DNA of 64,000 nt from Candidatus Gastranaerophilales bacterium (GCA_944324905.1 CALUYB010000002.1:17834-81833), one strand, 5' to 3'. Shown: positions 35,032 through 48,678, numbered from the stretch's first letter. Numbers and translations: made by a program. The notes: generated by a model from the letters alone, not told the origin.

Positions 35032-35737
35032 AATGCTTAAATTAAATAAACGCGTCATCCTGAACTTGTTTCAGGATCTTATTAGTAATTGTCTAGAGCA
35101 TAAAGTGGATAAGACCCTGAAATAAATTCAGGATGACAGGTTGAGTGTTCAGGGTGACAGGTTGAGTGTTCAGGGTGACAGGTTGGCAATTCAGGGTGAC
35201 CTATTTACTCGAAAACCCCCTCTTTTTTAATGCTTAAATTAAATAAACGCGTCATCCTGAACTTGTTTCAGGATCTTATTAGTAATTGTCTAGAGCATAA
35301 AGTGGATAAGACCCTGAAATAAATTCAGGGTGATAAGTTGGGTGTTCATGGTGACAGGTTGATAATTCAGGGTGACAGGTTGGGTGTTCAGGGCGTCAGG
35401 TTGTAATTCAGGGTGACCTATTTACTCGAAAACCCCTCTTTTTTAATGCTTAAATTACATAAACGCGTCATCCTGAACTTGTTTCAGGATCTTATTAGTA
35501 ATTGTCTAGAGCATAAAGTGGATAAGACCCTGAAATAAATTCAGGGTGACAGGTTGGGTGTTCAGTGTTACAGGTTGGCAATTCAGGGTGACAAGTTGGT
35601 AATTCAGGGTGACAGGTTGGGTGTTCAGTGTTACAGGTTGGCAATTCAGGGTGACAGGTTGGGTGTTCAGTGTTACAGGTTGGCAATTCAGGGTGACATA
35701 TTTACTTAAAAACCCCTCTTTTCTAATGCTTGAATTC
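35021..35737. repeat. Nested tandem-repeat array: three units (197, 216 and 280 bp), each with two palindromes and a run of 21-bp direct repeats
   Basis: Unit boundaries CCCTCTTTTTTAATGCTTAAATTA occur at 35021, 35218 and 35434, plus a degenerate fourth boundary at 35714. There are 17 phased copies of TTCAGGGTGACAGGTTGNNNN, starting at 35127, 35324 and 35540. Palindromes are ATCCTGAA-N5-TTCAGGAT and ACCCTGAA-N5-TTCAGGGT. Confidence 0.95.
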
Positions 35738-35789
35738 TATTCCCCACTTATGTAATTTATTTTTTACCCCTTTATCTTATTATCTGATA

Positions 35790-37052
35790 ATGCAAAGAAT
35801 TATCAGAAACACTCTTTTAAATTATCTGCCCAAAGATTTGATAACCGAGCAAAATGTTAATCCGTTGCGAATTTATGAGCTAAATAATGCTGATATTAAA
35901 AATGGTAAAATAATTTACCTCATGCAAAGAGAAATCCGCCCTTTTGACAATTTCGCACTTCAATTTTGTCAGGAAATGGCTGCTAAATTGGGCATGCCAT
36001 ATAAAATTATTTGTCCGAAATTTTCTTGCGATTATATGCCAAAAGAAAATTTTATAAACAATCAAATTGAGCATGTTAAAGGTGAATTTTTAAAAAAGAA
36101 TATCGACTTTAGTCTTTTTATTGGCAACAGTTCTGAGCTTTTTAAATATTTGCAAAACGAACAAATTGCAATGTTGATTGTTGATTTTAGTCCTATTTTA
36201 AATCGAGATAAGCTAAAAAAATTTCCATTTAAAGTATATGAGGTTGACTCGCATAATATAATTCCTGCACGCTTTTTGTCAGATAAACAAGAGTATGGCG
36301 CATCTACAATCAGAAGAAAAATCTATAAAAATATTTACCCGTTTTTTACAAAATATAAAGAAAAATCACCTATATCACCCTACTTGCAGGATTTTATAGA
36401 AAATAAACTGCCATATTATGCAAAATACCGAAATGACCCGACAAAAAATGTTCAGTCAGGATTATCAAAATATTTAAATCTGGGCTTTATTTCCTCTCAA
36501 AGAGTTGCTCTTGAAGTTTTTAGTGCAGATGTAAGTGATGAAAACAAGGAGGCTTTTTTTGAAGAATTAATTGTACAAATGAGTCTTGCAGACAACTTTT
36601 GTCTTTATTGCAGTGATTTTAAAAGCTTAAAATGTATACAAAATTGGGCAAAAAATACAATTTTAGAACATAAAAATGATATTAGGGAGTATATTTACTC
36701 AACTAACGCCCTTGAGGAGGCTAAAACTCACGACAAGCTTTGGAATGCAACGCAAAAACAACTTGTGTGCGATGGTGTAATCCATGGGTATTTAAGAATG
36801 TATTGGGCAAAGCAAATTGCAAAGTGGACAAAAACCGCTCAAGATGCACTTGATGTTGCAATTTATTTGAATGATAAATATGCATACGACTCACCCTCAT
36901 CAAACGGTTATGCAGGAATTTTGTGGTCGATTGGTGCTTTGCATGATAGAGCTTTTGTAAATCGCTATTTGACAGGCAAAATCAGAACCATGACATATAA
37001 ATCTATAAGCAAGAAATTTGATATAAATAAATACATTGATAAATACCAATAA
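35790..37052 (+). CDS. phr: Class II deoxyribodipyrimidine (CPD) photolyase
   Basis: IYLMQREIRPFDNFALQF matches the class II YWMxRDxRxxDNWAL block. The C-terminus has LWNATQ...HGYLRMYWAKQIAKWT. The ATG at 35790 is preferred over the TTG at 35730, which lies in the repeat boundary. Confidence 0.85.
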   Translation: MQRIIRNTLLNYLPKDLITEQNVNPLRIYELNNADIKNGKIIYLMQREIRPFDNFALQFCQEMAAKLGMPYKIICPKFSCDYMPKENFINNQIEHVKGEFLKKNIDFSLFIGNSSELFKYLQNEQIAMLIVDFSPILNRDKLKKFPFKVYEVDSHNIIPARFLSDKQEYGASTIRRKIYKNIYPFFTKYKEKSPISPYLQDFIENKLPYYAKYRNDPTKNVQSGLSKYLNLGFISSQRVALEVFSADVSDENKEAFFEELIVQMSLADNFCLYCSDFKSLKCIQNWAKNTILEHKNDIREYIYSTNALEEAKTHDKLWNATQKQLVCDGVIHGYLRMYWAKQIAKWTKTAQDALDVAIYLNDKYAYDSPSSNGYAGILWSIGALHDRAFVNRYLTGKIRTMTYKSISKKFDINKYIDKYQ

Positions 37053-37143: not shown

Positions 37144-37680
37144 ATGAAAAAAGTTCTTATTCTGGCAACCAGCCCAAGGAAAAATGGTAATTCAACCTTG
37201 CTTGCGCAAGAATTTCAAAAGGGCGTGCAAGAAGCTGGAAATTCTGCAGAAATTATTTATCTTTGCGAAAAAAATATAAACTTCTGTAAGGGTTGCCTAA
37301 GTTGTATAAGGACTAAAAAATGCATTATTGACGATGATATGGGAGAAATTTTAGAAAAAATTAAAACTTCTGATGTTATTGTTTTTGCGACTCCAATTTA
37401 TTATTATGAAATGTCAGGGCAAATGAAAACCCTTATAGATAGGACAAATCCATTGTTTGAGTCAGATTACCCCTTTAGAGATATTTATCTTTTAGCAACT
37501 GCCGCCGATAGTGGCGAATACTGCGCAGATGGGGCAATTAAAGGACTTGAAGGTTGGATAGCATGTTTTAGTAAAACAAATTTAAAAGGTGTCATAAAAG
37601 GCTTTGGTGTAACTTCAGCAGGGGACATAAAGGGTCATAAAGCCCTTATTGAAGCATACAATGCAGGAAAAAATGTTTAA
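37144..37680 (+). CDS. Flavodoxin-fold FMN reductase / iron-sulfur flavoprotein-like protein
   Basis: MKKVLILATSPRKNGNS N-terminus, Cys cluster CEKNINFCKGCLSC, and PIYYYEMSGQMKTLIDR. AAGGAGGA ribosome-binding site. Confidence 0.8.
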   Translation: MKKVLILATSPRKNGNSTLLAQEFQKGVQEAGNSAEIIYLCEKNINFCKGCLSCIRTKKCIIDDDMGEILEKIKTSDVIVFATPIYYYEMSGQMKTLIDRTNPLFESDYPFRDIYLLATAADSGEYCADGAIKGLEGWIACFSKTNLKGVIKGFGVTSAGDIKGHKALIEAYNAGKNV

Positions 37681-38354
37681 AACATATTTTTAAGATTTTC
37701 ACTAATTTTAAAACTTGCCTCAGTTGTAGCTTTAATATCCTCAATTGTAAAATAAGGGTTAATTTCTGTCATTAAAAGGCCCTGTTTTGTAACCTCAAAT
37801 ACGCATTTTTCAGTAATTATCATATCGACTTCAGCTGAGGCTGTTAATGGCAAGTCGCACCTTTTAACAATTTTTATTTGACCTTTTGAGGTGTGCTCCA
37901 TAACCACAATAACCCTTTTAGAACCTACAACAAGATCCATAGAGCCGCCCATCCCGGGGACAAGTTTATTAGGTATCATCCAGCTTGCAAGGTTTCCTTC
38001 TTCATCTACTTGTAATGCGCCTAAAACCGTTGCGTCGATATGTCCGCCGCGCATAATAGTAAAAGCCATCTGTGTATCATAAAAGCAGCAGCCTTTAATG
38101 GGCTCTACAAAAGCACCGCCGGCGTTAATTACTCGAGGATCGGGACTTTCGCCCTGATGAAGTCTGCCTGCACCTAAAAGTCCGTTTTCCGATTGAAAAA
38201 TAACACCCATCTCATCAGGCACATAGTTTGCAATCTCTGTTGGCAAGCCTATACCAAGAGTAACGACATCACCTCTTTTAAACTCCTGAGCCGCTCTTTT
38301 TGCAATAATTTCTCTGATTTTTTCTTTTGTTAGTTCAACTTGTGCAACAGGCAT
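37677..38354 (-). CDS. 3-oxoacid / acetate CoA-transferase, subunit B
   Basis: Catalytic-glutamate motif FQSENGLLG and GMGGSMDLV; abuts subunit A. Confidence 0.9.
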   Translation of the reverse strand: MPVAQVELTKEKIREIIAKRAAQEFKRGDVVTLGIGLPTEIANYVPDEMGVIFQSENGLLGAGRLHQGESPDPRVINAGGAFVEPIKGCCFYDTQMAFTIMRGGHIDATVLGALQVDEEGNLASWMIPNKLVPGMGGSMDLVVGSKRVIVVMEHTSKGQIKIVKRCDLPLTASAEVDMIITEKCVFEVTKQGLLMTEINPYFTIEDIKATTEASFKISENLKNMF

Positions 38355-39005
38355 TTATTTTTCCTCCCGTTTTACAATGTAATCGACAAAAAGCCCCGGA
38401 ATTACAACCTCATTAGGCTCAAGGCAGTCAACTATTTCATCAGCTTGCACAATAACGGTATCTGCTGCTGTTGCCATAACTGTGTTGAAATTTCTTGTTG
38501 TTCCATAAAATGAAACGTTGCCGAATTTATCAACTTTTGTACCGTAAATTAATGCAAAATCAGCCCCAAGCGGTTTTTCAAATATAAACTTTTTTCCGTC
38601 AACCTCTAGTGTTTTTTTATTTTCTTCAAGTATTGTTCCAATTCCCGTTTGAGTAAGTACTCCGCCTAAACCTGCGCCTTTTGCTCGAATTTTTTCAACC
38701 AAAGTACCCATAGGAATTAACTCTACATCAATTTCGCCATCATGCATTTGCTTGCCTGTTTCAGGGTTTGTGCCAATGTGAGCTGCTATTACTCTTTTAA
38801 CCATTTTGTTTGTAATAATCTTGCCCTTATCAACATTTGGATAAGATGTATCATTACAAATCATTGTAAGATTTTTTTTGCCCTGCAAAACAAGTTCATC
38901 TATTAATTTATCAGGCGCACCACAACTTAAAAAGCCCCCAACCATAATAGTTGCACCGTCTTTAATTAAACTTATTGCTTCCTTTGCACTCGTTATCTTT
39001 TTCAT
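38355..39005 (-). CDS. 3-oxoacid / acetate CoA-transferase, subunit A
   Basis: IKDGATIMVGGFLSCGAPDKLIDEL N-terminus typical of AtoD/ScoA/CtfA. Confidence 0.9.
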   Translation of the reverse strand: MKKITSAKEAISLIKDGATIMVGGFLSCGAPDKLIDELVLQGKKNLTMICNDTSYPNVDKGKIITNKMVKRVIAAHIGTNPETGKQMHDGEIDVELIPMGTLVEKIRAKGAGLGGVLTQTGIGTILEENKKTLEVDGKKFIFEKPLGADFALIYGTKVDKFGNVSFYGTTRNFNTVMATAADTVIVQADEIVDCLEPNEVVIPGLFVDYIVKREEK

Positions 39006-39038: not shown

Positions 39039-40241
39039 TTATAACACAATTTGCGTACCAACAATTAACTTATGTGAATCAGGTTTTGCGTCATTTTGGC
39101 AATAAACATAATTAAAAATTAATTTTAAAGCCTGTCCTTTTAAATAGTAATTTACGCCTGCACTATATTCTCTTTGGTTGTTGTCGCGTTTTGTTTTATC
39201 GGGATTAAACTGGTCGTAACGTGCAAGGAGTTCTATTTTTTTGGTTAGATGATAACCAAGTGTTGCATAAAAACCTTCTGTACCCTTGTTTGTTGGTCCG
39301 CTGCCACCGTTAGAGCCGTCAGAGTTTGCATATTCTGCTCTTGCCCAGAATTTTTTATATTCATAGCTAAGTGCAGCTCCCGTCATAAAGTAATCAATAG
39401 AGTGTCTTCTGCCTGCTACAATACCGCCCCCTGCAACGATTTTACCCCATTTGCCATCTGTTTTACCCAACGGTTTAATATTTACCCAGCCGTCAAATTC
39501 TAGCCCTGGGAAGAATTCTTGAAAGAAAGTATCTGAGCTGTAACCGCCAAAATCGTAATCTACAAGGGAGTAATCACCCCTGACTCTCAGACCAAATTTT
39601 CTTACATTAGCGAGATTTCTTGAAATTTGCGAACGTGCTACAAAAGGTAATGTATATGGAGATTGCGCACCTTCATAACCAACTCCGGGGCGAGAGTTAC
39701 CTATTAAAATATTGTGATGAGGTATTCTGTTTGTTTCAAAATAAGCATCCTGTATTAACTGTTGAAAAAAGCCATGGGCGTGGGTCGGAGTCGGGTCTAG
39801 CATTAAACGAAAACCTTCTTTTCTGCCTCTGAATTTTCCGTCAAATATGATGTTTATGAGTGCCATATTAAACTTTGTGTCAGTATCTGCGTTTTCGCTC
39901 ATTTGTGTTGTAATGTTACCTTGCAGAGCAACCCAAGTATGAAAACTCTCTAGCGGTCCCTTATCAAAAGTCATAGTAAGTTGTTTTTTAAGCAACTGCG
40001 AAGGGACATCCGTACGCTCAATTTGCAATTCCCACACATCTTTTGGAGCGCTCATTAAATTTGACAAAAAAGTATCTTTTTCTTTTTGGATATCTTGTTC
40101 AAATTCTTCTTTTGTCTGTCCTGTTATATTTTCTATAAAATCGCCATCAGGATTTTCTTCAAGCTTAATTTCTTCCTCAATGGCAAAAACTTGAGGAACA
40201 AATATAAAAAGAAAAATAATGCTCAATAAAATCTTTTTCAT
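39039..40241 (-). CDS. Outer-membrane beta-barrel porin (OprO/P-like)
   Basis: Signal peptide MKKILLSIIFLFIFVPQVFA. The C-terminal half shows alternating aromatic/hydrophilic beta-strand patterns (YSAGVNYYLKGQALKLIFNYVY). No Shine-Dalgarno sequence is evident. Confidence 0.6.
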   Translation of the reverse strand: MKKILLSIIFLFIFVPQVFAIEEEIKLEENPDGDFIENITGQTKEEFEQDIQKEKDTFLSNLMSAPKDVWELQIERTDVPSQLLKKQLTMTFDKGPLESFHTWVALQGNITTQMSENADTDTKFNMALINIIFDGKFRGRKEGFRLMLDPTPTHAHGFFQQLIQDAYFETNRIPHHNILIGNSRPGVGYEGAQSPYTLPFVARSQISRNLANVRKFGLRVRGDYSLVDYDFGGYSSDTFFQEFFPGLEFDGWVNIKPLGKTDGKWGKIVAGGGIVAGRRHSIDYFMTGAALSYEYKKFWARAEYANSDGSNGGSGPTNKGTEGFYATLGYHLTKKIELLARYDQFNPDKTKRDNNQREYSAGVNYYLKGQALKLIFNYVYCQNDAKPDSHKLIVGTQIVL

Positions 40242-40282: not shown

Positions 40283-41155
40283 TTATTTCATGTCCTTGCC
40301 GTGGTCATCTCTTAAATATGCAGTCCAGAATAGTAAAACCACAAACACAAAAGCACCAACCATATTACCTAAAGTAACAGGCAACAAGTTGCCTAAAAGG
40401 AATGATTTAATGTTTAAAGTTGCAAGTTGATCAGGAGTTAAGCCTGAAGCAAGCGCAACAGCAGGAGTTGCTTTTAAGAATAAGCCATTAGAGATAAAGT
40501 ACATATTTGCAATACTGTGCTCGTAACCTGAAGCAACGAATGTTGTAATTGGGAAGAAAATTGCAAATATTTTACCTATAACGTGGCGAGAGGATGAAGC
40601 CATCCAAATAGCAAGACATACAAGCCAGTTACATAAAATACCTCTTGTAAATGCTTCAACAAATGTTAAGTTTACTTTTGTATAAGCAGTTGTTAAACCT
40701 AAAACACCTAATGCTTCATGGGAGTTATGTGAGCAGCCTGTAAAGTATATAATTGTAGCTAAAAGTACCGAGCCGACAAAGTTACCAATATAAACAATCG
40801 TCCAGTTTCTAAGTAATTTTGCAAGGCTTGTTTTCTTTTCAATTACTGAAAAAGTCATCATAACGTTACCTGTAAAAAGTTCTGCACCTGTCAGGACAAC
40901 CATCATAAGACCTGTAGCAAATGTCATCGCTCCGATTAACTTTGCAAAACCCCAGCTAACAGCTTCCGTTCCTGTCATAACATTAAGGGAAACTTGTGCA
41001 CCAAAGGCAATTAGAGCGCCTGCTGCTATTGCAAGTACAAAAGTTTTTGATTTTCTAAAGTTTGCTTTTGCAGGCATGACTTTGTCTGCAATTTCATGCG
41101 CCACATGATTTGGCGAGATACAGTCTTTTGTATCTAAATTTTGTTGTGTTTCCAT
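40283..41155 (-). CDS. Formate/nitrite transporter (FNT) family channel, FocA-like
   Basis: 290 aa with six TM segments. N-terminal KSKTFVLAIAAGALIAFGA and the FNT block ASGYEHSIANMYF. Confidence 0.85.
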   Translation of the reverse strand: METQQNLDTKDCISPNHVAHEIADKVMPAKANFRKSKTFVLAIAAGALIAFGAQVSLNVMTGTEAVSWGFAKLIGAMTFATGLMMVVLTGAELFTGNVMMTFSVIEKKTSLAKLLRNWTIVYIGNFVGSVLLATIIYFTGCSHNSHEALGVLGLTTAYTKVNLTFVEAFTRGILCNWLVCLAIWMASSSRHVIGKIFAIFFPITTFVASGYEHSIANMYFISNGLFLKATPAVALASGLTPDQLATLNIKSFLLGNLLPVTLGNMVGAFVFVVLLFWTAYLRDDHGKDMK

Positions 41156-41347
41156 TTTTTTCTCCTGTTCACTCTTTATTTAGCATTAACAATTCCGCAA
41201 AAGACATCTTTTGCGATTATACGGTGCATATAGTCCCTATACGGCTCTGTATAAAATTCTTAAGTTGTTAATGACCAAAGTCGCAACAAAAATTTTATAT
41301 CGAAAAATTTTATTTTCAAGCAAAAAATTTTGTAATAAAAAACAAGC

Positions 41348-41376
41348 TTGACATTAGCTTTTGTTAGTTTTATAAC
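41348..41376 (+). promoter_or_regulatory. Sigma-70-type promoter for the hydrogenase-like operon
   Basis: TTGACA (41348-41353), a 17-nt spacer, then TATAAC (41371-41376). Confidence 0.6.
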
Positions 41377-41388
41377 ACCATTTGTTAT

Positions 41389-43395
41389 ATGTACAGCCGA
41401 ATTTTTGGGATGGAAGTAATGAATAATTTTTTTATAGGAATTTTATTTTTTATACTGAGCGGGTTTATTGCAAGTATTTTTCGAAAAGAAAATAAAATTA
41501 AAATACTGAGCATTTTGTGTTTTATAGGTTCTTTATTCTGTTTAACTCCGGCAGTAAGTGTGCTTTTTAGCGGTCAAAATTTAATCACAGAGTGCAATTT
41601 TAATCCCATTTTTGGGACAATAAACTTTACACTTGATCCACTAAGTGCTTTTTTTGTAGTTGTAATAAGTGTAATGAGCCTTATGGGGGTAATTTATTCA
41701 AAGGGTTATTTAAAACCATATCTTGATAAAGTAAAAAATATTAATTCTCATTTAATATTTTTACCTTTACTTATAGCTTCAATGTTACTTGTGGTAAGTT
41801 GTCAAAATGCTTTTGCATTTTTAATTTTTTGGGAAATAATGTCCTTAAGCTCATTTTTCCTTGTTATATTTGAATCAGACAAAAAGGACGTCTTGAAAGC
41901 CGGAATAAAATACCTTGTTTTCATGCACATTTCTGTAATTTTTATAATAATTGCTTTTGCGCTTTGTGCAATAAATGCAGGCGGATATGACTTTAGTTTA
42001 TTTTCTCAAGTTTTAAGAGAAAATTCACATTTGGCAAATCTAGTTTTTGCTTTTGCATTCATTGGTTTTGGCACAAAGGCAGGTTTTGTACCTTTTCACA
42101 ACTGGTTGCCAGATGCACACCCTGCAGCACCAAGCCATGTCAGCGCAATTATGTCAGGAGTTATGATAAAAACAGGTATTTATGGAATTTTAAGAGTTCT
42201 ATCTTTTTATGCAACACCATCTAAAGCACTTGCATTTGCTGTTCTTATAATTTCCGTTATATCGGCACTTTATGGGGTTTTATATGCCATAACCCAGCAT
42301 GACCTAAAAAGACTTTTGGCTTACCACTCTATTGAAAATATAGGTATAATAGGGATTGGCACAGGAGTAGGTATGTTAGGTCTTGCATACGGACAAATAC
42401 AAATTGCTCTTATTGGTTTTGCAGGTGCAATTTTACACATATTAAACCACTCAATATTCAAAGAACTTTTATTCTTGAGCGCAGGCAGCGTTTATATTAA
42501 AACACATACTCGTGATATTGAAATCTTAGGCGGGTTAATAAAATCAATGCCATTTAGTGCGGTGTTATTTCTAATAGGCTCTGTCGCAATTTGTGGTCTA
42601 CCTCCATTTAACGGCTTTATCAGTGAATTTTTAATATACTTTTCAATGTTAAAATGTCTGGCAGTTAAAGATTTCTTTGTGCTTATTGCACTGTTATTTT
42701 CCATTGCAGGATTGGCATTGGTTGGTACAATGGCTGTCTTGTGCTTTACAAAAGCATTCAGCATAATATTTTTAGGAATGCCAAGAAGTGAAAATGCAAA
42801 AGCACCGACATCGGATTGCGAAAAGTCAATGCTTATGCCTATGGGATTTTTAGCAATTTTAACGCTGTTAATAGGCATTTTCCCTCAGTATGTATTTGAT
42901 GTTGTGCTAAAACCGGCTGCAACTGTTGCAAATACAAGCATAATGCCAATCGGAACCTGTGCAGATTTAATGCAGACAATTTCACTGTGCGCATTTGGCT
43001 TTATTGCTTTTGTAATTATACTTTTACTGTTTAAACTTAAATTTTCAGGTAAAGTTCAAATGCACGACACCTGGGGTTGCGGTTATGATAGAGCAAATAA
43101 TCGCATGCAATACAGTGCATCCTCCTATGCAAGCCCGTTTTTATCGATGTTAAGACCTTTATTTAAAAAGATTTTCGACATTGAAAAACCAAAACAACTT
43201 TTCCCGAAATCTGCACACTTTAGCTTGCATATAGATGATATTGAAGAAGCTTATGTTATTAATCCGCTTGTTAAATTTGACGAATGGTTCTTGTCAAAAT
43301 TTGAAGCTATACAAAGTGGTAATATTCAAAGTTACATAAAATACGGGCTAATATTTTTAGTTTTAATAATAATCGGAAGTTTGTTTATAGGATAA
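41389..43395 (+). CDS. Antiporter-like membrane subunit (HyfB/HycC/NuoL family) of a group-4 hydrogenase-related complex
   Basis: 668 aa, polytopic. Carries the WLPDAHPAAPSHVSA and LAYHSIENIG blocks of the Mrp/NuoL family. The start is uncertain (41389, 41410 or 41419), because the predicted promoter would leave almost no leader for 41389. Confidence 0.85.
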   Translation: MYSRIFGMEVMNNFFIGILFFILSGFIASIFRKENKIKILSILCFIGSLFCLTPAVSVLFSGQNLITECNFNPIFGTINFTLDPLSAFFVVVISVMSLMGVIYSKGYLKPYLDKVKNINSHLIFLPLLIASMLLVVSCQNAFAFLIFWEIMSLSSFFLVIFESDKKDVLKAGIKYLVFMHISVIFIIIAFALCAINAGGYDFSLFSQVLRENSHLANLVFAFAFIGFGTKAGFVPFHNWLPDAHPAAPSHVSAIMSGVMIKTGIYGILRVLSFYATPSKALAFAVLIISVISALYGVLYAITQHDLKRLLAYHSIENIGIIGIGTGVGMLGLAYGQIQIALIGFAGAILHILNHSIFKELLFLSAGSVYIKTHTRDIEILGGLIKSMPFSAVLFLIGSVAICGLPPFNGFISEFLIYFSMLKCLAVKDFFVLIALLFSIAGLALVGTMAVLCFTKAFSIIFLGMPRSENAKAPTSDCEKSMLMPMGFLAILTLLIGIFPQYVFDVVLKPAATVANTSIMPIGTCADLMQTISLCAFGFIAFVIILLLFKLKFSGKVQMHDTWGCGYDRANNRMQYSASSYASPFLSMLRPLFKKIFDIEKPKQLFPKSAHFSLHIDDIEEAYVINPLVKFDEWFLSKFEAIQSGNIQSYIKYGLIFLVLIIIGSLFIG

Positions 43396-43401
43396 GATAA
43401 A

Positions 43402-44319
43402 ATGGCAATTAAAATTTTAAACATATTAATAGTTTTATTTGTTCCGTTTTTAATGCTTGGTGTTATTAAAAAAACAAAAGCATTTTGGGGCGGAAGATAC
43501 GGTGCATCAGTATTTCAGCCGTTGTATGATTTTATAAAGTTAATGAAAAAAGATTTTGTGATAAGTAAAACTACAAGCGGTGTCTTTAGAATTACGCCTG
43601 TTATAGTCATTGCAAGTGTGCTTTTTGCAGCTTTATTTGTACCTTTGGCTTCATCAAGCGCAATAATTAACATAGAGGCCGGTTTTATAGTTTTTGCTTA
43701 TATTTTAAGCTTTTCAAAATTTTTCTCACTAATTTCCGCTATGGATACAGGCAGCAGTTTTGAAGGTATGGGAGCATCCCGTGAAGCTTGTTTTACAACA
43801 ATTGTTGAACCTGCATTTTTTATGCTCTTAGCCTCTATTATGGCACTGAGCGGAAATTATACTTTTGATTCTCTTGGAAAAATCATTGAAAACGCAGGCG
43901 GATATGGAATTTTAATCTGTATTTTTGCAATACTTGTACTTTTTATAATGATTTTAACTGAAGGTTCAAGGGTTCCTGTTGATGACCCTGCAACACACCT
44001 TGAATTAACTATGATTCATGAAGTTATGATTTTAGATAACTCGGCATCTGATTTAGCTCTTATCAGTTGGGCAAACGGTATAAAAATGCTATTGTTATCA
44101 TCTTTAATTGCTGCAATTGTTATTCCTCAGGGTATTGGTACGGGACTTTCAATTTGTGCTTACCTTGGTTTAATGTTTTTAATTTCCGTTATAATCGGAA
44201 CTATTGAGTCCGCAACAGCAAGAATAAGGATGTCGCACGTTTTTGAATTTGTTTTTATAATGAGTTCATTTGCGCTTATTGTTCTGTCTTTGGTTGCTGC
44301 AAGGATGTTTGGAGGCTAA
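43402..44319 (+). CDS. NuoH/HyfC/HycD-like membrane subunit
   Basis: 305 aa, polytopic. EGSRVPVDDPATHLELTMIHE resembles the conserved HycD/NuoH loop. Confidence 0.8.
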   Translation: MAIKILNILIVLFVPFLMLGVIKKTKAFWGGRYGASVFQPLYDFIKLMKKDFVISKTTSGVFRITPVIVIASVLFAALFVPLASSSAIINIEAGFIVFAYILSFSKFFSLISAMDTGSSFEGMGASREACFTTIVEPAFFMLLASIMALSGNYTFDSLGKIIENAGGYGILICIFAILVLFIMILTEGSRVPVDDPATHLELTMIHEVMILDNSASDLALISWANGIKMLLLSSLIAAIVIPQGIGTGLSICAYLGLMFLISVIIGTIESATARIRMSHVFEFVFIMSSFALIVLSLVAARMFGG

Positions 44320-44322
44320 TTT

Positions 44323-44976
44323 ATGGAAAACGGTTTTATAATACTTTTTGGTCTTACAATGTTGTATTTGGCAGCAACAAGCAGGATTGTATCTCACGTT
44401 AGATTGCTTGTTTTGCAAGGAATTCTACTGTTCTTAATTTGCGCTTGCCACTTTGAACACCAAAGTGCGCTTAATATAACTTTTTTAACGGTTGAAACAT
44501 TAATTGTTAAAACAATTGTAATTCCCTGGTTTTTATTTAAAGTATTGAAAAAAACAAAAGCCAACAGGGATGTTGGTGCAAATATACCGCATTTTTACTG
44601 TCTTGTAAGCGCAAGTATAATTTTACTTTGCGGATTTTTGCTACCCAACCACTTTTTTAATTCAGATACGATGAAAATGATTTCTCCTTTGTATTTCGGG
44701 GTATCGCTTGCAACAATTATCATAAGCTTATGGCTGATTACAATTAAGCATAAAATTATCTCTAACGTAATTGAGTTTATTACAATGGAAAACGGTATTT
44801 TCTTACTGTCGTTATCTGTTGCAAAAGAAATGCCTGTCCTTGTAAATATGGGTGTTCTGCTAGATGTATTTATAGCAATTTATATTCTTGGATTATTTAT
44901 AAATGAAATTAACAGAGAATTTAAAGATTTAGAAGTTTCTAACCTGTCAGATTTAAAGGATTACAGCAATGATTAA
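44323..44976 (+). CDS. HyfE-like small membrane subunit (NuoK-related)
   Basis: 217 aa (HyfE-like size), multi-TM; position between the HyfC-like and HyfF-like genes. Confidence 0.7.
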   Translation: MENGFIILFGLTMLYLAATSRIVSHVRLLVLQGILLFLICACHFEHQSALNITFLTVETLIVKTIVIPWFLFKVLKKTKANRDVGANIPHFYCLVSASIILLCGFLLPNHFFNSDTMKMISPLYFGVSLATIIISLWLITIKHKIISNVIEFITMENGIFLLSLSVAKEMPVLVNMGVLLDVFIAIYILGLFINEINREFKDLEVSNLSDLKDYSND

Positions 44977-46399
44977 CGCAATATTAATATTTCCGATAGT
45001 TGCCTGCATTTTAATGGCAATAATTAAAAAAAGAGTATTTGACTGTGCAATGGTTAATTTATATGCCATTTTACACGTGGTTTCTACTGTGCTTTTGGCA
45101 ATGGGAATAGGCAAAGAGGGCAATATTCCGTATTTTACCGTTGATAATACAAATCTTATATTTTTAATAATTTTGTCCTTGGTATTTTTAATGGTGGCAA
45201 TATACAACAACGGATATGTAAAAACACTTGAATATCCCGATAAAAAAATAGGTCATTATTCTTTTATGATAATGGTTTTTGTTCTGGCAATGACAGGAAC
45301 TGTTTTATCAAGTAATTTAGGTATTGCGTGGATTTTTGTTGAAGCAACGACACTATCAAGTGCGTATTTAATTTATTTCAATAAAACCAAACACTCAATA
45401 GAAGCGGCTTGGAAATATGTTTTCATCTGCTCAATTGGTATTGCGCTTGCTTTTGTAGGTATAATATTTTTAAATATTGCTCAAGGTGATATAAATACTC
45501 TGGATTTTGCACAATTGTATAAACACGCAAATACATTTGACCCGTTCTGGCTCAAGATGTCTTTTGTATTTATGCTTTTTGGTTTTGGTACAAAAATGGG
45601 GCTTGCACCGGTTCACTTTTGGTTGCCGGACGCTCACTCTGAAGCACCATCACCAATATCAGCACTTTTGTCTGCTACTTTATTGAACTCAGCATTTTTG
45701 GTAATTGTAAGAGTATTTAAAGTTTTAGATATTGCGCAATGCGACCAGTGGGCAAGAATAATGCTTTTAATTTGCGGTTTTGTATCACTATTTGTAACTG
45801 CAGTTTTTGTATACCATATAAAAAATTACAAAAGAATGCTTGCTTATTCCTCAATTGAAAATATGGGAATTTTGGCAATAGGTACAGCTTTGGGTGGCGC
45901 TGCTTTATATGCGGTGATTTTACATTTAATCGGACACTCACTTGCAAAAGCATCATTCTTTTTAACATCAGGCAATGTGCTAGAGCTTTTTGGCACAAAA
46001 AGAATTAAATCAGTCAGCGGTATTATGGAGGCTGACAAGAAAACAGGTTGGCTATGGTTGTTTTCATTCCTTGCGATTTGCGCATTCCCAACATCTGTTT
46101 TATTTATAAGCGAGTTTTTAATGGTAAAAACCATGATATGTGATGGGCACTATATATTGTGCGCATTATTCGTGCTGCTATTAACAATAATACTTTGGGG
46201 TATTGCAAAAGTTACGCTAAAAATGACTTTTGGAAAATTAAGCGAGGATAAAGCGCAAGCTGTAATGGAAAACAAAACTAAAGTTACGTTTTGCAAGTTT
46301 GCACCGCAATTTATAATGCTTTTAATAGTATTTACATTAGGTATTTATGTTCCGCCGTTTTTAAATAATATTATAAACTGCGCTATGGCAGGATTTTAG
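44969..46399 (+). CDS. Antiporter-like membrane subunit (HyfF/NuoM-N family)
   Basis: 476 aa. WLPDAHSEAPSPISA and LAYSSIENMG blocks. Overlaps the upstream gene by 8 nt. Confidence 0.85.
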   Translation: MINAILIFPIVACILMAIIKKRVFDCAMVNLYAILHVVSTVLLAMGIGKEGNIPYFTVDNTNLIFLIILSLVFLMVAIYNNGYVKTLEYPDKKIGHYSFMIMVFVLAMTGTVLSSNLGIAWIFVEATTLSSAYLIYFNKTKHSIEAAWKYVFICSIGIALAFVGIIFLNIAQGDINTLDFAQLYKHANTFDPFWLKMSFVFMLFGFGTKMGLAPVHFWLPDAHSEAPSPISALLSATLLNSAFLVIVRVFKVLDIAQCDQWARIMLLICGFVSLFVTAVFVYHIKNYKRMLAYSSIENMGILAIGTALGGAALYAVILHLIGHSLAKASFFLTSGNVLELFGTKRIKSVSGIMEADKKTGWLWLFSFLAICAFPTSVLFISEFLMVKTMICDGHYILCALFVLLLTIILWGIAKVTLKMTFGKLSEDKAQAVMENKTKVTFCKFAPQFIMLLIVFTLGIYVPPFLNNIINCAMAGF

Positions 46400-46410
46400 G
46401 GGATAATAAA

Positions 46411-47874
46411 ATGAACTGGATTAAAACAAAAAATAATACAAAAATTAATCTTAATGAAATTCCTACTCTTAAAATTAATGAATTAAGAGAGGAGATAATA
46501 AGCCTAAATAAAAGACCAATCGGCTTTTTTGGAAAAGACTGGGGCTATGGCACAACAAGACTTTTTGTAGTTCTTGCAGATGATGAAAATGGTGACTTGT
46601 ATGTTTCATCGGCACTTTTTGGGCAAAATGAAAAAGAATATGAATCGTTAACTCAAGTTCTGCCTGCGTTTCATATATTTGAAAGAGAATTTTATGAGCA
46701 ATTTGGGATAAAACCACTTAATCACCCTTGGTTAAAACCATTAAGAAAAAACCAAAAAAATTATCAATTTTTTGAAATGGAAGGCGAAGAAGTCCACCAA
46801 GTTGCAGTTGGGCCAATTCACGCGGGTGTTATTGAACCTGGACACTTTAGGTTTATGTGCAATGGTGAAACGGTTTATCACCTTGAAATCATGCTTGGTT
46901 ATCAAAATAGGGGTGTTGAAGATTTGATGGTTAAACATCCTACAAATCAGCTTGCAGAGTCTGTTTGTGGTGATAGTGTAATTGCGCACAACCTTGCATA
47001 TTCAAAGGTTATGGAGGTATTGAAAGATATTAAGGTTTCAAAAAGAGCGCAATTAATAAGAACTCTTGCGCTTGAAATGGAACGAGCTGCAATACATATT
47101 GGTGACTTAGGCGCAATAGCAGGTGATATCGCCTATCTTATGGGTGCATCAGTCTTTGGTGCAACAAGGACTCTTGTAATAAACACTATGCTTGAGTTTT
47201 CGGGAAGTCGTTTTGGTAGAGGACTTGTAACTGTTGGCGGTGTTAATTTTGATATAGATAATGAAAAAATCGAACGTGCTGTAAAAACACTTACAAAAGT
47301 TGAAAAAGATGTTGAACGTATGGTTAAAACTATGCTTAAAAATACATCTGTTATGTCAAGGTTAGAAAAAACAGGCGTTGTAAGCCAAGAAAAAGCTCGT
47401 GAAATAGGACTTGTCGGCATGGCAGCACGTGCTTGCGGAATTATTTTAGATTCTCGTTTTGACTTTGCTGATGAATGTTTTAAAAATCTTGCCCTACCAA
47501 GAAAAATATTTAAAGGCAAAGGCGATGTTAACGCAAGATTTCAACTGAGATATCAGGAAACAATGGAATCCTTATCCATTGCAAAAAGGATACTTGAAAT
47601 GCTTAAAAACGGCTACAGGGAGGAAGTTTTAACAAAGAACGAAAATTTACTTTGTGCTGATTCAATGGCAATTTCAATAACAGAGGGCTGGAGAGGCGAA
47701 GTAGTTCATATTGCATTAACGGATATGAACGGTACGCTTTCAAGATATAAAATTAAAGACCCGTCGTTTAACAACTGGTATGGTCTGGCACTTGCCGTCA
47801 GAAACAACGGAGTGTCGGATTTTCCATTGTGCAACAAGAGTTTTAACCTATCATACTGCGGGAATGATTTATAA
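46411..47874 (+). CDS. NuoC-NuoD / HycE-HyfG-like 'large subunit' lacking both canonical NiFe-binding CxxC motifs
   Basis: VGPIHAGVIEPGHFRF is the hallmark of group-4 large subunits and NuoD. The N-terminal motif position reads SVCGDSVIAH and the C-terminus reads FPLCNKSFNLSYCGNDL-stop. There is no CxxC anywhere in the 487 aa. Confidence 0.85.
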   Translation: MNWIKTKNNTKINLNEIPTLKINELREEIISLNKRPIGFFGKDWGYGTTRLFVVLADDENGDLYVSSALFGQNEKEYESLTQVLPAFHIFEREFYEQFGIKPLNHPWLKPLRKNQKNYQFFEMEGEEVHQVAVGPIHAGVIEPGHFRFMCNGETVYHLEIMLGYQNRGVEDLMVKHPTNQLAESVCGDSVIAHNLAYSKVMEVLKDIKVSKRAQLIRTLALEMERAAIHIGDLGAIAGDIAYLMGASVFGATRTLVINTMLEFSGSRFGRGLVTVGGVNFDIDNEKIERAVKTLTKVEKDVERMVKTMLKNTSVMSRLEKTGVVSQEKAREIGLVGMAARACGIILDSRFDFADECFKNLALPRKIFKGKGDVNARFQLRYQETMESLSIAKRILEMLKNGYREEVLTKNENLLCADSMAISITEGWRGEVVHIALTDMNGTLSRYKIKDPSFNNWYGLALAVRNNGVSDFPLCNKSFNLSYCGNDL

Positions 47875-47885
47875 GGAAGAAAATT

Positions 47886-48641
47886 ATGTTTGATACACTA
47901 AAATCAAGAATTTACCAAGGGAATCAATTTATAAAAGATATTCAAAATGCGCCTATACGCTCTCAGTTCAGAGGCTTGCCAAAGTTATGCAATTCTGATT
48001 GTAACAACTGCAGTGCATGTCTTAATATTTGTCCGACAGGCGCACTAAAATTAAATCCACTATCAATTGATATGGGAAAATGCACTTTTTGCGGTGCTTG
48101 TAAAAACGTATGCAAAACAGGCGCAATTGATTTTTCAAATTTTTACAAACTTTCTGCAACAAGTAGAGATAAGCTTGTTATAACAGAAAATATGACAGAA
48201 GAAGAATTTTCAAAAGTTGCAATTGAAGTTAAAAAAGAAATTAAAAAAGTTTTTGGCAGGTCTTTAAAGTTAAGACAAGTATCCGCTGCAGGGTGCAATG
48301 GTTGCGAAATGGAGCTTAACGCTTGTTCTAACGTAAACTTTGATATGGGCAGGTTTGGCATAGATTTTGTTGCCTCCCCTCGCCATGCGGATGGGCTTGT
48401 GATTACTGGGCCAATTTCAAAAAATATGGCATATGCACTTGAGGATTGTTATAAATCAACGCCAGACCCTAAAGTTGTTATTCTCTGCGGTGCTTGTGCA
48501 ATTTCAGGTGGAGTTTTTCAAGATAGCAGCGAACTTAACAGGGAATTTCTGGAAAAATATCCTATAGATTTGTATATTGCGGGTTGTCCGGTACATCCGC
48601 TGACTTTCATAAACGGTGTTTTAGGTTTAATTGGAAGATAA
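47886..48641 (+). CDS. Fusion of a 2x[4Fe-4S] ferredoxin-like domain (HycF/HyfH/NuoI-like) to a NuoB/HycG/HyfI-like small subunit
   Basis: The N-terminal domain carries CNNCSACLNICP and CTFCGACKNVC. The C-terminal domain carries GCNGCEME, LCGACAISGG and GCPVHP, the four ligands of the proximal cluster. Confidence 0.85.
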   Translation: MFDTLKSRIYQGNQFIKDIQNAPIRSQFRGLPKLCNSDCNNCSACLNICPTGALKLNPLSIDMGKCTFCGACKNVCKTGAIDFSNFYKLSATSRDKLVITENMTEEEFSKVAIEVKKEIKKVFGRSLKLRQVSAAGCNGCEMELNACSNVNFDMGRFGIDFVASPRHADGLVITGPISKNMAYALEDCYKSTPDPKVVILCGACAISGGVFQDSSELNREFLEKYPIDLYIAGCPVHPLTFINGVLGLIGR

Positions 48642-48645
48642 TTAA

Positions 48646-48678
48646 AATCCCGCTTAATTAGCGGGATTTAATTTTTAT
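48646..48678. terminator. Bidirectional terminator between the hydrogenase-like operon and metY
   Basis: AAATCCCGCT TAATT AGCGGGATTT (48646-48670) followed by a T-rich run. Confidence 0.75.

Follow-up and report, generated by a model that had tools for sequence, protein, structure and literature searches.

An Ehr-family operon without a NiFe site in a Candidatus Gastranaerophilales genome, and its possible role as a ferredoxin-linked ion pump

A 64,000-nt stretch of DNA (hereafter, the window) from a metagenome-assembled genome (MAG) of a Candidatus Gastranaerophilales bacterium (Melainabacteria, gut-dwelling relatives of cyanobacteria; GCA_944324905.1) carries a six-gene operon that almost certainly encodes a complex of the energy-converting hydrogenase-related (Ehr) family, neither a hydrogenase nor a formate hydrogenlyase (FHL). 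The assignment was made from gene set, gene order, motifs and published naming, reference Ehr complexes being compared by description. The features that place the complex in this family are its subunit set and order, a group-4-like large subunit without CxxC motifs, a NuoB-type subunit that holds the proximal-cluster ligands, and the lack of NiFe maturation genes. Taken overall, a canonical ehrA-B-C-D-L-S operon working as a ferredoxin-linked ion pump is the explanation that we find, on balance, probable. The specific mechanism, in which oxidation of ferredoxin in the forward direction would drive the pump by analogy with related enzymes, is plausible and falls a little short of probable. The genes of the operon are as follows.

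ehrA, 41410..43395, + strand: HyfB/HycC-like (NuoL-like) antiporter-like subunit; the open reading frame (ORF) opens at 41389, conserved start at 41410 (661 aa) or 41419 (658 aa)
ehrB, 43402..44319, + strand: NuoH/HyfC/HycD-like membrane subunit, 305 aa; full-length match to PF00146 (NADHdh) at 2.6e-32
ehrC, 44323..44976, + strand: HyfE-like small membrane subunit, 217 aa
ehrD, 44969..46399, + strand: HyfF/NuoM-N-like antiporter-like subunit, 476 aa
ehrL, 46411..47874, + strand: fused NuoC+NuoD/HycE-like 'large subunit' without a NiFe site, 487 aa
ehrS, 47886..48641, + strand: 2x[4Fe-4S] ferredoxin-like domain and NuoB/HycG-like small subunit in one fused protein of 251 aa

Loss of the NiFe site from the large subunit

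EhrL matches PF00329 (Complex1_30kDa) and PF00346 (Complex1_49kDa). Its best matches in the PDB are Pyrococcus MbhL (6cfw_L, 5e-39) and Escherichia coli HycE (7z0s_E, 3e-37), to which it is far more similar than to NuoD of complex I; the match to the Mbs large subunit is weak, at 7e-13. Three of the four NiFe-ligating cysteines are gone, RxCGxC being replaced by SVCGDS and the C-terminal CxxC by SYCG, and the protein terminates in ...GNDL, without a C-terminal extension. Within the order, the position of the remaining first cysteine is occupied by C, N, A or V.

Relatives of EhrL were collected from a library of 1.8 billion proteins, and 118 full-length cluster representatives were aligned. 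Nearly all representatives at 35-60% identity have (A/C/S)GD(S/T) and NKSFNLSY(C/S/A)GxDL, at which the protein ends, and true CGxC and CxxC motifs are restricted to a few representatives at ~35% identity to EhrL. EhrL retains the HAGxIEPGHFRF loop typical of hydrogenases, along with many charged residues that are invariant. Having lost the NiFe ligands, the module is not a hydrogenase and is predicted to be unable to make or use H2. Since the NiFe ligands are lost, protons are excluded as the electron acceptor.

Genome-wide searches for formate and hydrogenase partners

The assembly (1.66 Mb in 24 contigs, 99.5% complete) was searched as a whole, and the absences given below for this genome rest on one high-quality, fragmented MAG. 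The order was sampled with 41 Gastranaerophilales genomes which, being related, are non-independent samples. HypD, the HycI endopeptidase and a NiFe large subunit (PF00374) were not found in the assembly. A molybdopterin oxidoreductase (PF00384) was not found there either, and the genome therefore lacks a formate dehydrogenase (FDH) of the usual kind. Across the order, HypD was detected in 0 of the 41 genomes and a molybdopterin enzyme in a single one. The only hydrogenases detected in the genome are three paralogous FeFe-hydrogenase large subunits within 9 kb (G000:C3:143178-151982). Ferredoxin consumed by these hydrogenases can be supplied by 2-oxoacid:ferredoxin oxidoreductases, of which two alpha subunits (POR_N) are present; an F-type ATPase is probably present too. 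Neither Rnf nor a second NuoD homologue was found in the assembly, and the second NuoD is missing across the genus too.

A first-pass annotation of this DNA had seen no fdhF, hyp or hycI in the window, and had described the operon as a self-contained ion-translocating redox module for which formate was no more than a hint. The absence of these genes extends to the whole assembly, where none of the four proteins named above was found. The description as a self-contained module is supported by a neighbourhood comparison of 143 orthologous or homologous loci, in which no extra redox subunit is conserved beside the six genes, and the caution about formate is upheld by the missing molybdopterin enzyme. 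Three points had been missed: the loss of the NiFe ligands, the Ehr family name, and ferredoxin, to which the fused ferredoxin-like domain points.

These searches bear directly on a formate-linked complex, be it a Hyf-type FHL or an FDH-Ehr supercomplex of the kind hypothesised for Margulisbacteria/Saganbacteria (PMC6349859). We regard such a complex as highly improbable here, even though Hyf B, E and F are the top-scoring models for the membrane subunits, the conserved divergent neighbour of the operon encodes a FocA-type channel, and Geobacter Ehr subunits were more abundant on formate (PMC7894505). The absence of a molybdopterin enzyme, NiFe ligands, HypD and HycI stands against it, together with that of pyruvate formate-lyase (PFL), which was not found in the assembly by hidden Markov models or by tblastn with the PFL of a congener. 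An FHL or other hydrogenase was rejected on the lost NiFe cysteines and on the lack of HypD, HycI, PF00374 and PF00384 in the genome, and an FDH-Ehr complex was rejected for the order as a whole, given its one molybdopterin enzyme in 41 genomes.

Electron-transfer and membrane subunits

EhrS matches Fer4 and PF01058 (Oxidored_q6) and has all 12 Fe-S cysteines, namely two CxxCxxCxxxC motifs plus C137, C140, C204 and C234. Cysteines C49, C66, C69 and C72 and the four proximal-cluster cysteines are invariant in 77 sequences of the order. A NuoI-like module is the entry point of ferredoxin in Ech, Mbh and NDH-1; by analogy with these enzymes, and given its fused ferredoxin-like domain, the complex most likely has ferredoxin as its partner.

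On the membrane side, EhrA matches PF00361 (Proton_antipo_M) and PF00662 (Proton_antipo_N); it scores 588 bits against NF005086 (hydrogenase 4 subunit B), and its best PDB match is HycC of FHL (7z0s_C, 7e-68, residues 16-593). EhrD matches PF00361 and scores 320 bits against NF005044 (hydrogenase 4 subunit F). The Glu of transmembrane helix (TM) 5, the Lys of TM7, the His/Lys of TM8 and the Glu of TM12, which form the ion-conducting path of complex I, Mbh and Mrp, are retained in both proteins, as aligned to HycC for EhrA and to MbsH and MbhH for EhrD. EhrC matched NF008556 (hydrogenase 4 membrane subunit) at 2.6e-18, under the curated cut-off. Its C-terminal half is weakly NuoK/MrpC-like (PF00420, 16 bits; MrpC-like chain of Mbs, 6u8y_G, E=0.28), and the glutamate of an M-E-x-G motif aligns in this weak comparison. 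With its Fe-S cysteines and pump residues intact and with the purifying selection described below, the Ehr complex looks functional, as far as can be judged from sequence.

A possible mechanism and its rivals

From these features we infer that ferredoxin is the partner, which way electrons flow, that ions are pumped and that there is an acceptor, and combine these points as follows. The 2-oxoacid:ferredoxin oxidoreductases of a fermenting cell would reduce ferredoxin, which would dock on the ferredoxin-like domain of EhrS. From there, electrons would travel via at most two [4Fe-4S] clusters to the proximal cluster of NuoB type and on to the pocket formed by EhrL, EhrS and EhrB, where an acceptor would be reduced. 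The resulting change in charge and protonation at the pocket would drive export of H+ or Na+ through EhrB/EhrC and through EhrA and EhrD. The outcome would be a membrane potential in an organism that has no Rnf, complex I or quinone pathway.

Several observations weigh against this proposal. The acceptor cannot be named, protons being excluded, and an NAD(P)-binding module is missing. A quinone is an unlikely acceptor because neither MenB nor the futalosine pathway was found, the only MenA-like match is weak, and the positions of Tyr87 and His38 of Thermus thermophilus Nqo4 are unconserved (Ser189 and Ile141 in EhrL). Some EhrS branches have lost cluster ligands: in about half of the order, two to four of the cysteines of the first (outer) ferredoxin-type cluster (C39, C42, C45 and C76) are gone, and 16 of 68 aligned environmental EhrS sequences have Asp/Asp/Asn at three proximal-ligand positions, a sub-branch that probably lacks the proximal cluster. 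In view of these losses, electron flow may not be essential to the Ehr family as a whole. The apparent dispensability of the outer cluster is in itself a modest new detail. Finally, no Ehr complex has been characterised biochemically (PMC10284858, PMC7894505).

The persistence of Ehr branches that have lost cluster ligands also speaks for a different kind of machine, an Mrp-type cation/proton antiporter whose Fe-S clusters would sense the redox state of the ferredoxin pool and gate transport, with no net electron throughput and no acceptor. The lack of a recognisable acceptor site and the intact state of both antiporter-like subunits fit this model as well. We nevertheless consider it unlikely. 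Variation within the order spares the proximal cluster and one ferredoxin-type cluster, and the EhrS of the window keeps all three clusters. Moreover, the HAGxIEPGHFRF proton-path motif, GD(S/T) and NKSFNLSY are invariant family-wide, which suggests chemistry at the old active site.

Another reading is a ferredoxin:quinone oxidoreductase similar to photosynthetic NDH-1, which would use menaquinone, or a precursor of it, taken up from the gut contents. The genome encodes a single prenyltransferase of the UbiA family, weakly similar to MenA, and the futalosine pathway occurs in some Ehr-bearing families of the order. The MenA-like match, however, reaches 75 bits against a curated cut-off of 277, MenB and the futalosine pathway (Mqn) were not found in this genome or in 24 genomes of the family, and the quinone-ligating Tyr and His are not conserved in EhrL. 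Quinol-oxidising terminal reductases, which were not searched for in this genome, are absent from gut Melainabacteria according to Di Rienzi et al. 2013 (PMC3787301). The quinone model is accordingly given a very low probability.

The direction of electron flow could also be the opposite, an ion gradient made by the ATPase, a pyrophosphatase or decarboxylases driving uphill reduction of ferredoxin that would feed the FeFe hydrogenases. Di Rienzi et al. 2013 put forward this mode for the complex as it occurs in gut Melainabacteria (PMC3787301). Complex-I-like machines are reversible, and the genome has FeFe hydrogenases that need reduced ferredoxin and probably the ATPase too. Reverse operation would, however, require an electron donor at the EhrL pocket, and none is identifiable among an NADH module, FDH or quinol, all of which are missing; the 2-oxoacid oxidoreductases, in addition, already supply reduced ferredoxin. 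We see this mode as a live alternative of low probability, on a par with the gated antiporter.

Distribution and purifying selection

EhrL has relatives in 569 clusters (50% identity) at E<1e-30 and in 510 species-representative genomes. The best 80 of the 510 share 68-97% identity; with few exceptions they come from animal-gut MAGs labelled Gastranaerophilales, Melainabacteria or Vampirovibrio, and those from Candidatus Galligastranaerophilus are the nearest. An ehr orthologue is present in 14 of the 15 genomes of the genus, one of which (G013) has ehrA-D on a truncated contig; elsewhere in the order sample its occurrence is patchy. The remaining genome of the genus (G009), which is 99% complete, lacks the operon, and in a DNA-level search the flanks of the ehr locus also had no match in it.

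The order A-B-C-D-L-S is invariant, with no frameshift, in all 73 species loci for which the contig suffices. The same invariance extends to 80 environmental loci at 40-49% identity, some of which have a duplicated or split ehrA. Ratios of nonsynonymous to synonymous substitution (dN/dS) in pairwise comparisons with six congeners were 0.02-0.13 for all six genes, with ~0.05 for ehrL. These low values in all six genes indicate that the operon is under strong purifying selection, as estimated from sequence comparison, and is not a relic. The loss of the catalytic ligands might have been taken as a sign that an old hydrogenase operon is decaying and no longer has a function. Such decay is hardly credible in view of the dN/dS values, the intact and invariant loci, a promoter conserved across the genus (see below) and the number of clusters in which the protein persists.

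Operon layout and control elements

All six ORFs lie on the + strand, with spacings of 6, 3, -8 (an overlap), 11 and 11 nt. Pfam and NCBIfam profiles give the order HyfB/HycC-like, NuoH-like, HyfE-like, HyfF-like, NuoC+D-like and ferredoxin+NuoB-like. The operon is flanked by the following further elements.

Candidate sigma-70-type promoter, 41348..41376, + strand: TTGACA at 41348-41353, 17-nt spacer, TATAAC at 41371-41376
Divergent control region, 41156..41347, no strand assigned: blocks ATACGGTGCATATA, TATACGGCTCTGTATA, AAGTTGTTAATGACCAAAGTC and AAAATTTTATATCG, invariant in 8 congener loci
Bidirectional intrinsic-terminator-like hairpin, 48645..48669, no strand assigned: perfect 10-bp stem (5 GC pairs), T-rich tails on both strands

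Most of this layout had been read correctly in the first-pass annotation. The ORF coordinates and profiles bear out its six-gene order with tight packing or overlap, and its two antiporter-like subunits are the two proteins of the operon that match PF00361, EhrA and EhrD. The TTGACA-N17-TATAAC promoter is present as described, the bidirectional terminator proved to be a hairpin with a perfect stem and T-rich tails on both strands, and the divergent FNT channel gene was recovered at 40283-41155 with a PF01226 match. The 668-aa NuoL-like product proposed for the first gene was right in identity and probably wrong in its start at 41389. The ATG at 41389 is not kept in relatives, in which the conserved N-terminus is MEVMNNFF or MNNFF; since orthologues begin with MEVMN... 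or MNxFF..., the start of ehrA was moved and is probably 41410 or 41419. The later start leaves a sensible leader behind the -10 box.

Promoter-like strings are no more frequent in this AT-rich window than expected by chance (31 observed, 32.3 expected). A real promoter is nonetheless supported by conservation: TTGACA, TATAAC and the greater part of the spacer do not vary across 8 of 8 orthologous intergenic regions at the genus level (mean column identity 79%). The conserved blocks of the divergent control region probably serve the FNT operon as operator or promoter elements. No Rfam family, the fluoride riboswitch included, matched within 41156-41347, and no riboswitch, fluoride or other, was found in 12 environmental Ehr loci. 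The terminator hairpin lies between ehrS and a convergent O-acetylhomoserine sulfhydrylase gene.

In 13 environmental loci, a gene encoding a fusion of HTH_17 and PTS EIIA-2 (PtsN-like) domains is located directly upstream of ehrA on the same strand (for example, L092:4340-5014); it is missing from the Gastranaerophilales loci. Its product is a candidate dedicated regulator in those environmental loci.

The FNT-porin-CoA-transferase neighbourhood

Three genes or gene pairs lie head to tail on the opposite strand, divergent from ehrA.

FocA-type FNT anion channel, 40283..41155, - strand: 290 aa; PF01226 at 1e-75, TIGR00790 above cut-off; divergent from ehrA
Outer-membrane porin-like beta-barrel, 39039..40241, - strand: 400 aa; weak Porin_O_P and OMP_b-brl matches; downstream of FNT
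AtoD/AtoA-type CoA-transferase subunits A and B, 37677..39005, - strand: PF01144, NF007394, TIGR02429 and TIGR02428; downstream of the porin

The FNT protein matched FocA at 1e-55 in the PDB; the hydrosulfide channel and NirC followed at 4e-23 and 6e-20, respectively. As the FocA match is far stronger, a hydrosulfide or nitrite channel is unlikely. The head-to-tail genes form a probable single operon for traffic and activation of short-chain carboxylates, to judge from their arrangement and families.

FNT is divergently upstream of ehrA in 40 of the 63 species loci with enough upstream sequence, and the porin accompanies it in 40/40. Among the Gastranaerophilales loci, FNT and the porin, with the CoA-transferase in some, are the conserved neighbours of ehr, and there are no others. 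The arrangement of all three is conserved in the genus; at three loci (L031, L038 and L078) CoA-transferase genes are found near ehr, arranged differently. Mapped on the EhrL tree, the FNT arrangement occurs throughout the order and changes state about six times, with at least three of these changes forced by well-supported branches. The pairing of FNT with ehr looks like an ancestral linkage with several losses. That FNT is missing from most Ehr-bearing genomes of the order sample outside the genus weighs against a necessary link between the two.

Support for formate itself is poor, this assembly having no FDH and no PFL; the CoA-transferase genes behind FNT and the porin suggest short-chain carboxylates more generally. 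PFL was detected in 13 of 15 genomes of the genus; this assembly, G005 and G007 lack it, and the FocA-type channel is kept regardless. A role of FNT as exporter of formate made by PFL was also considered, and is weakened by the lack of PFL here and by G009, which has PFL and neither FNT nor Ehr.

A more speculative reading is that the FocA-type channel, the porin and Ehr form one unit that couples traffic of weak-acid anions (formate or another short-chain carboxylate) to energising of the membrane, with no molybdenum FDH involved. It is based on the divergent arrangement, which is kept across the Gastranaerophilales EhrL tree while other neighbours are shuffled, on the joint absence of Ehr and FNT from G009, and on the lack of FDH and, in this genome, of PFL. 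In one version, the membrane potential made by Ehr would drive electrogenic efflux of the anion through the channel; in a bolder one, the remodelled EhrL pocket would act directly on the imported anion. We think this reading improbable.

Comparison with known systems

Ehr complexes were first named in Geobacter; the example used here is GSU0739-45 of Geobacter sulfurreducens, reportedly described in Coppi 2005 and Marreiros et al. 2013. The published naming of its subunits gives a NuoL-like EhrA, a HyfE-like EhrC, EhrL and EhrS (PMC7894505). Ehr complexes are related to Ech and complex I, mostly lack the NiFe cysteines and are close to group 4f hydrogenases (PMC7894505, PMC3569383, PMC10284858), and HydDB removes them as non-hydrogenases (PMC5037454). 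The Geobacter complex and the present one have the same subunit set, including a NuoH-like EhrB and an antiporter-like EhrD, and no dedicated maturation genes. They differ in the number of ehrA genes, two in Geobacter (as in many environmental loci) and one here, and in the host, which is here a quinone-free, FDH-free gut fermenter.

The presence of Ehr in gut Melainabacteria was already known, so that little is gained from this locus in the way of novelty. In eLife, Di Rienzi et al. 2013 listed the same six-subunit complex in gut Melainabacteria among membrane-energising systems, citing Marreiros 2013 for it, and Matheus Carnevali et al. 2019 placed Melainabacteria sequences in the Ehr clade and floated FDH-Ehr for sister phyla (PMC3787301 and PMC6349859, respectively). 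The lineage (Gastranaerophilales), the six genes and the lack of Rnf and FDH are the same in these reports. In contrast, an 11-subunit complex I was reported there, whereas a second NuoD is missing from this genome and from the rest of its genus. The FocA-porin neighbourhood is not discussed in the accessible text of PMC3787301 or PMC6349859. The modest additions made here are the genome-wide negatives, the lack of a second complex-I-like module in the genus, the conservation of the FocA-porin neighbourhood without FDH, and the corrected start of ehrA.

Compared with E. coli Hyc and Hyf, EhrA resembles HycC/HyfB over nearly its full length, C-terminal extension included, EhrC is HyfE-like, EhrD is HyfF-like, and EhrL is a fused NuoC-NuoD large subunit, as is HycE. 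The E. coli hyf operon itself closes with an FNT gene, focB. Unlike E. coli FHL, the present system has no NiFe cysteines, no HyfA/HycB in the operon, and no FdhF, hyp or HycI in the genome. It has two antiporter-like subunits, whereas Hyc has one and Hyf three, and its HycF-like and HycG-like parts are fused, whereas HycF/HyfH and HycG/HyfI are separate proteins in E. coli.

Mbh (6cfw) and Mbs/Mbx (6u8y) of Pyrococcus furiosus are ferredoxin-fed, ion-translocating complexes that have the NuoB, NuoD, NuoI and NuoH modules in common with Ehr. Mbs provides a precedent for a relative without NiFe that reduces another acceptor, sulfane sulfur. Both are larger, with 13-14 subunits that include Mrp-type small subunits, compared with the six genes of Ehr, and MbhL, unlike EhrL, has a NiFe site. 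Complex I and cyanobacterial NDH-1 have homologous core modules, and NDH-1 is also fed by ferredoxin. They have, however, at least 11 core subunits, whereas NuoA and NuoJ are missing from the six genes here and NuoK and NuoI have no gene of their own; Ehr also lacks the Tyr and His of the quinone site, and the genome lacks a quinone pathway. Ech (group 4e) likewise has six subunits, but with a single antiporter-like EchA and a NiFe-binding EchE, in place of the two antiporter-like subunits and the ligand-free EhrL found here.

Ehr is widespread and strongly selected, and stands evolutionarily between membrane hydrogenases and complex I. In this genus of quinone-free fermenters it is the only complex-I-like or Rnf-like machine, and it may be the main redox-driven route by which the cell energises its membrane. 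Gut Gastranaerophilales thus offer a clean genomic background for asking what Ehr does. The value of the present locus lies in being a well-documented example, and in the hint it gives of a FocA-type channel that accompanies Ehr whether or not FDH is present.

Elsewhere in the window, a class-2 photolyase-like gene was noted at 35730-37052. It scores 367 bits against TIGR00591, which is below the cut-off, and its host is apparently an obligately anaerobic gut bacterium.

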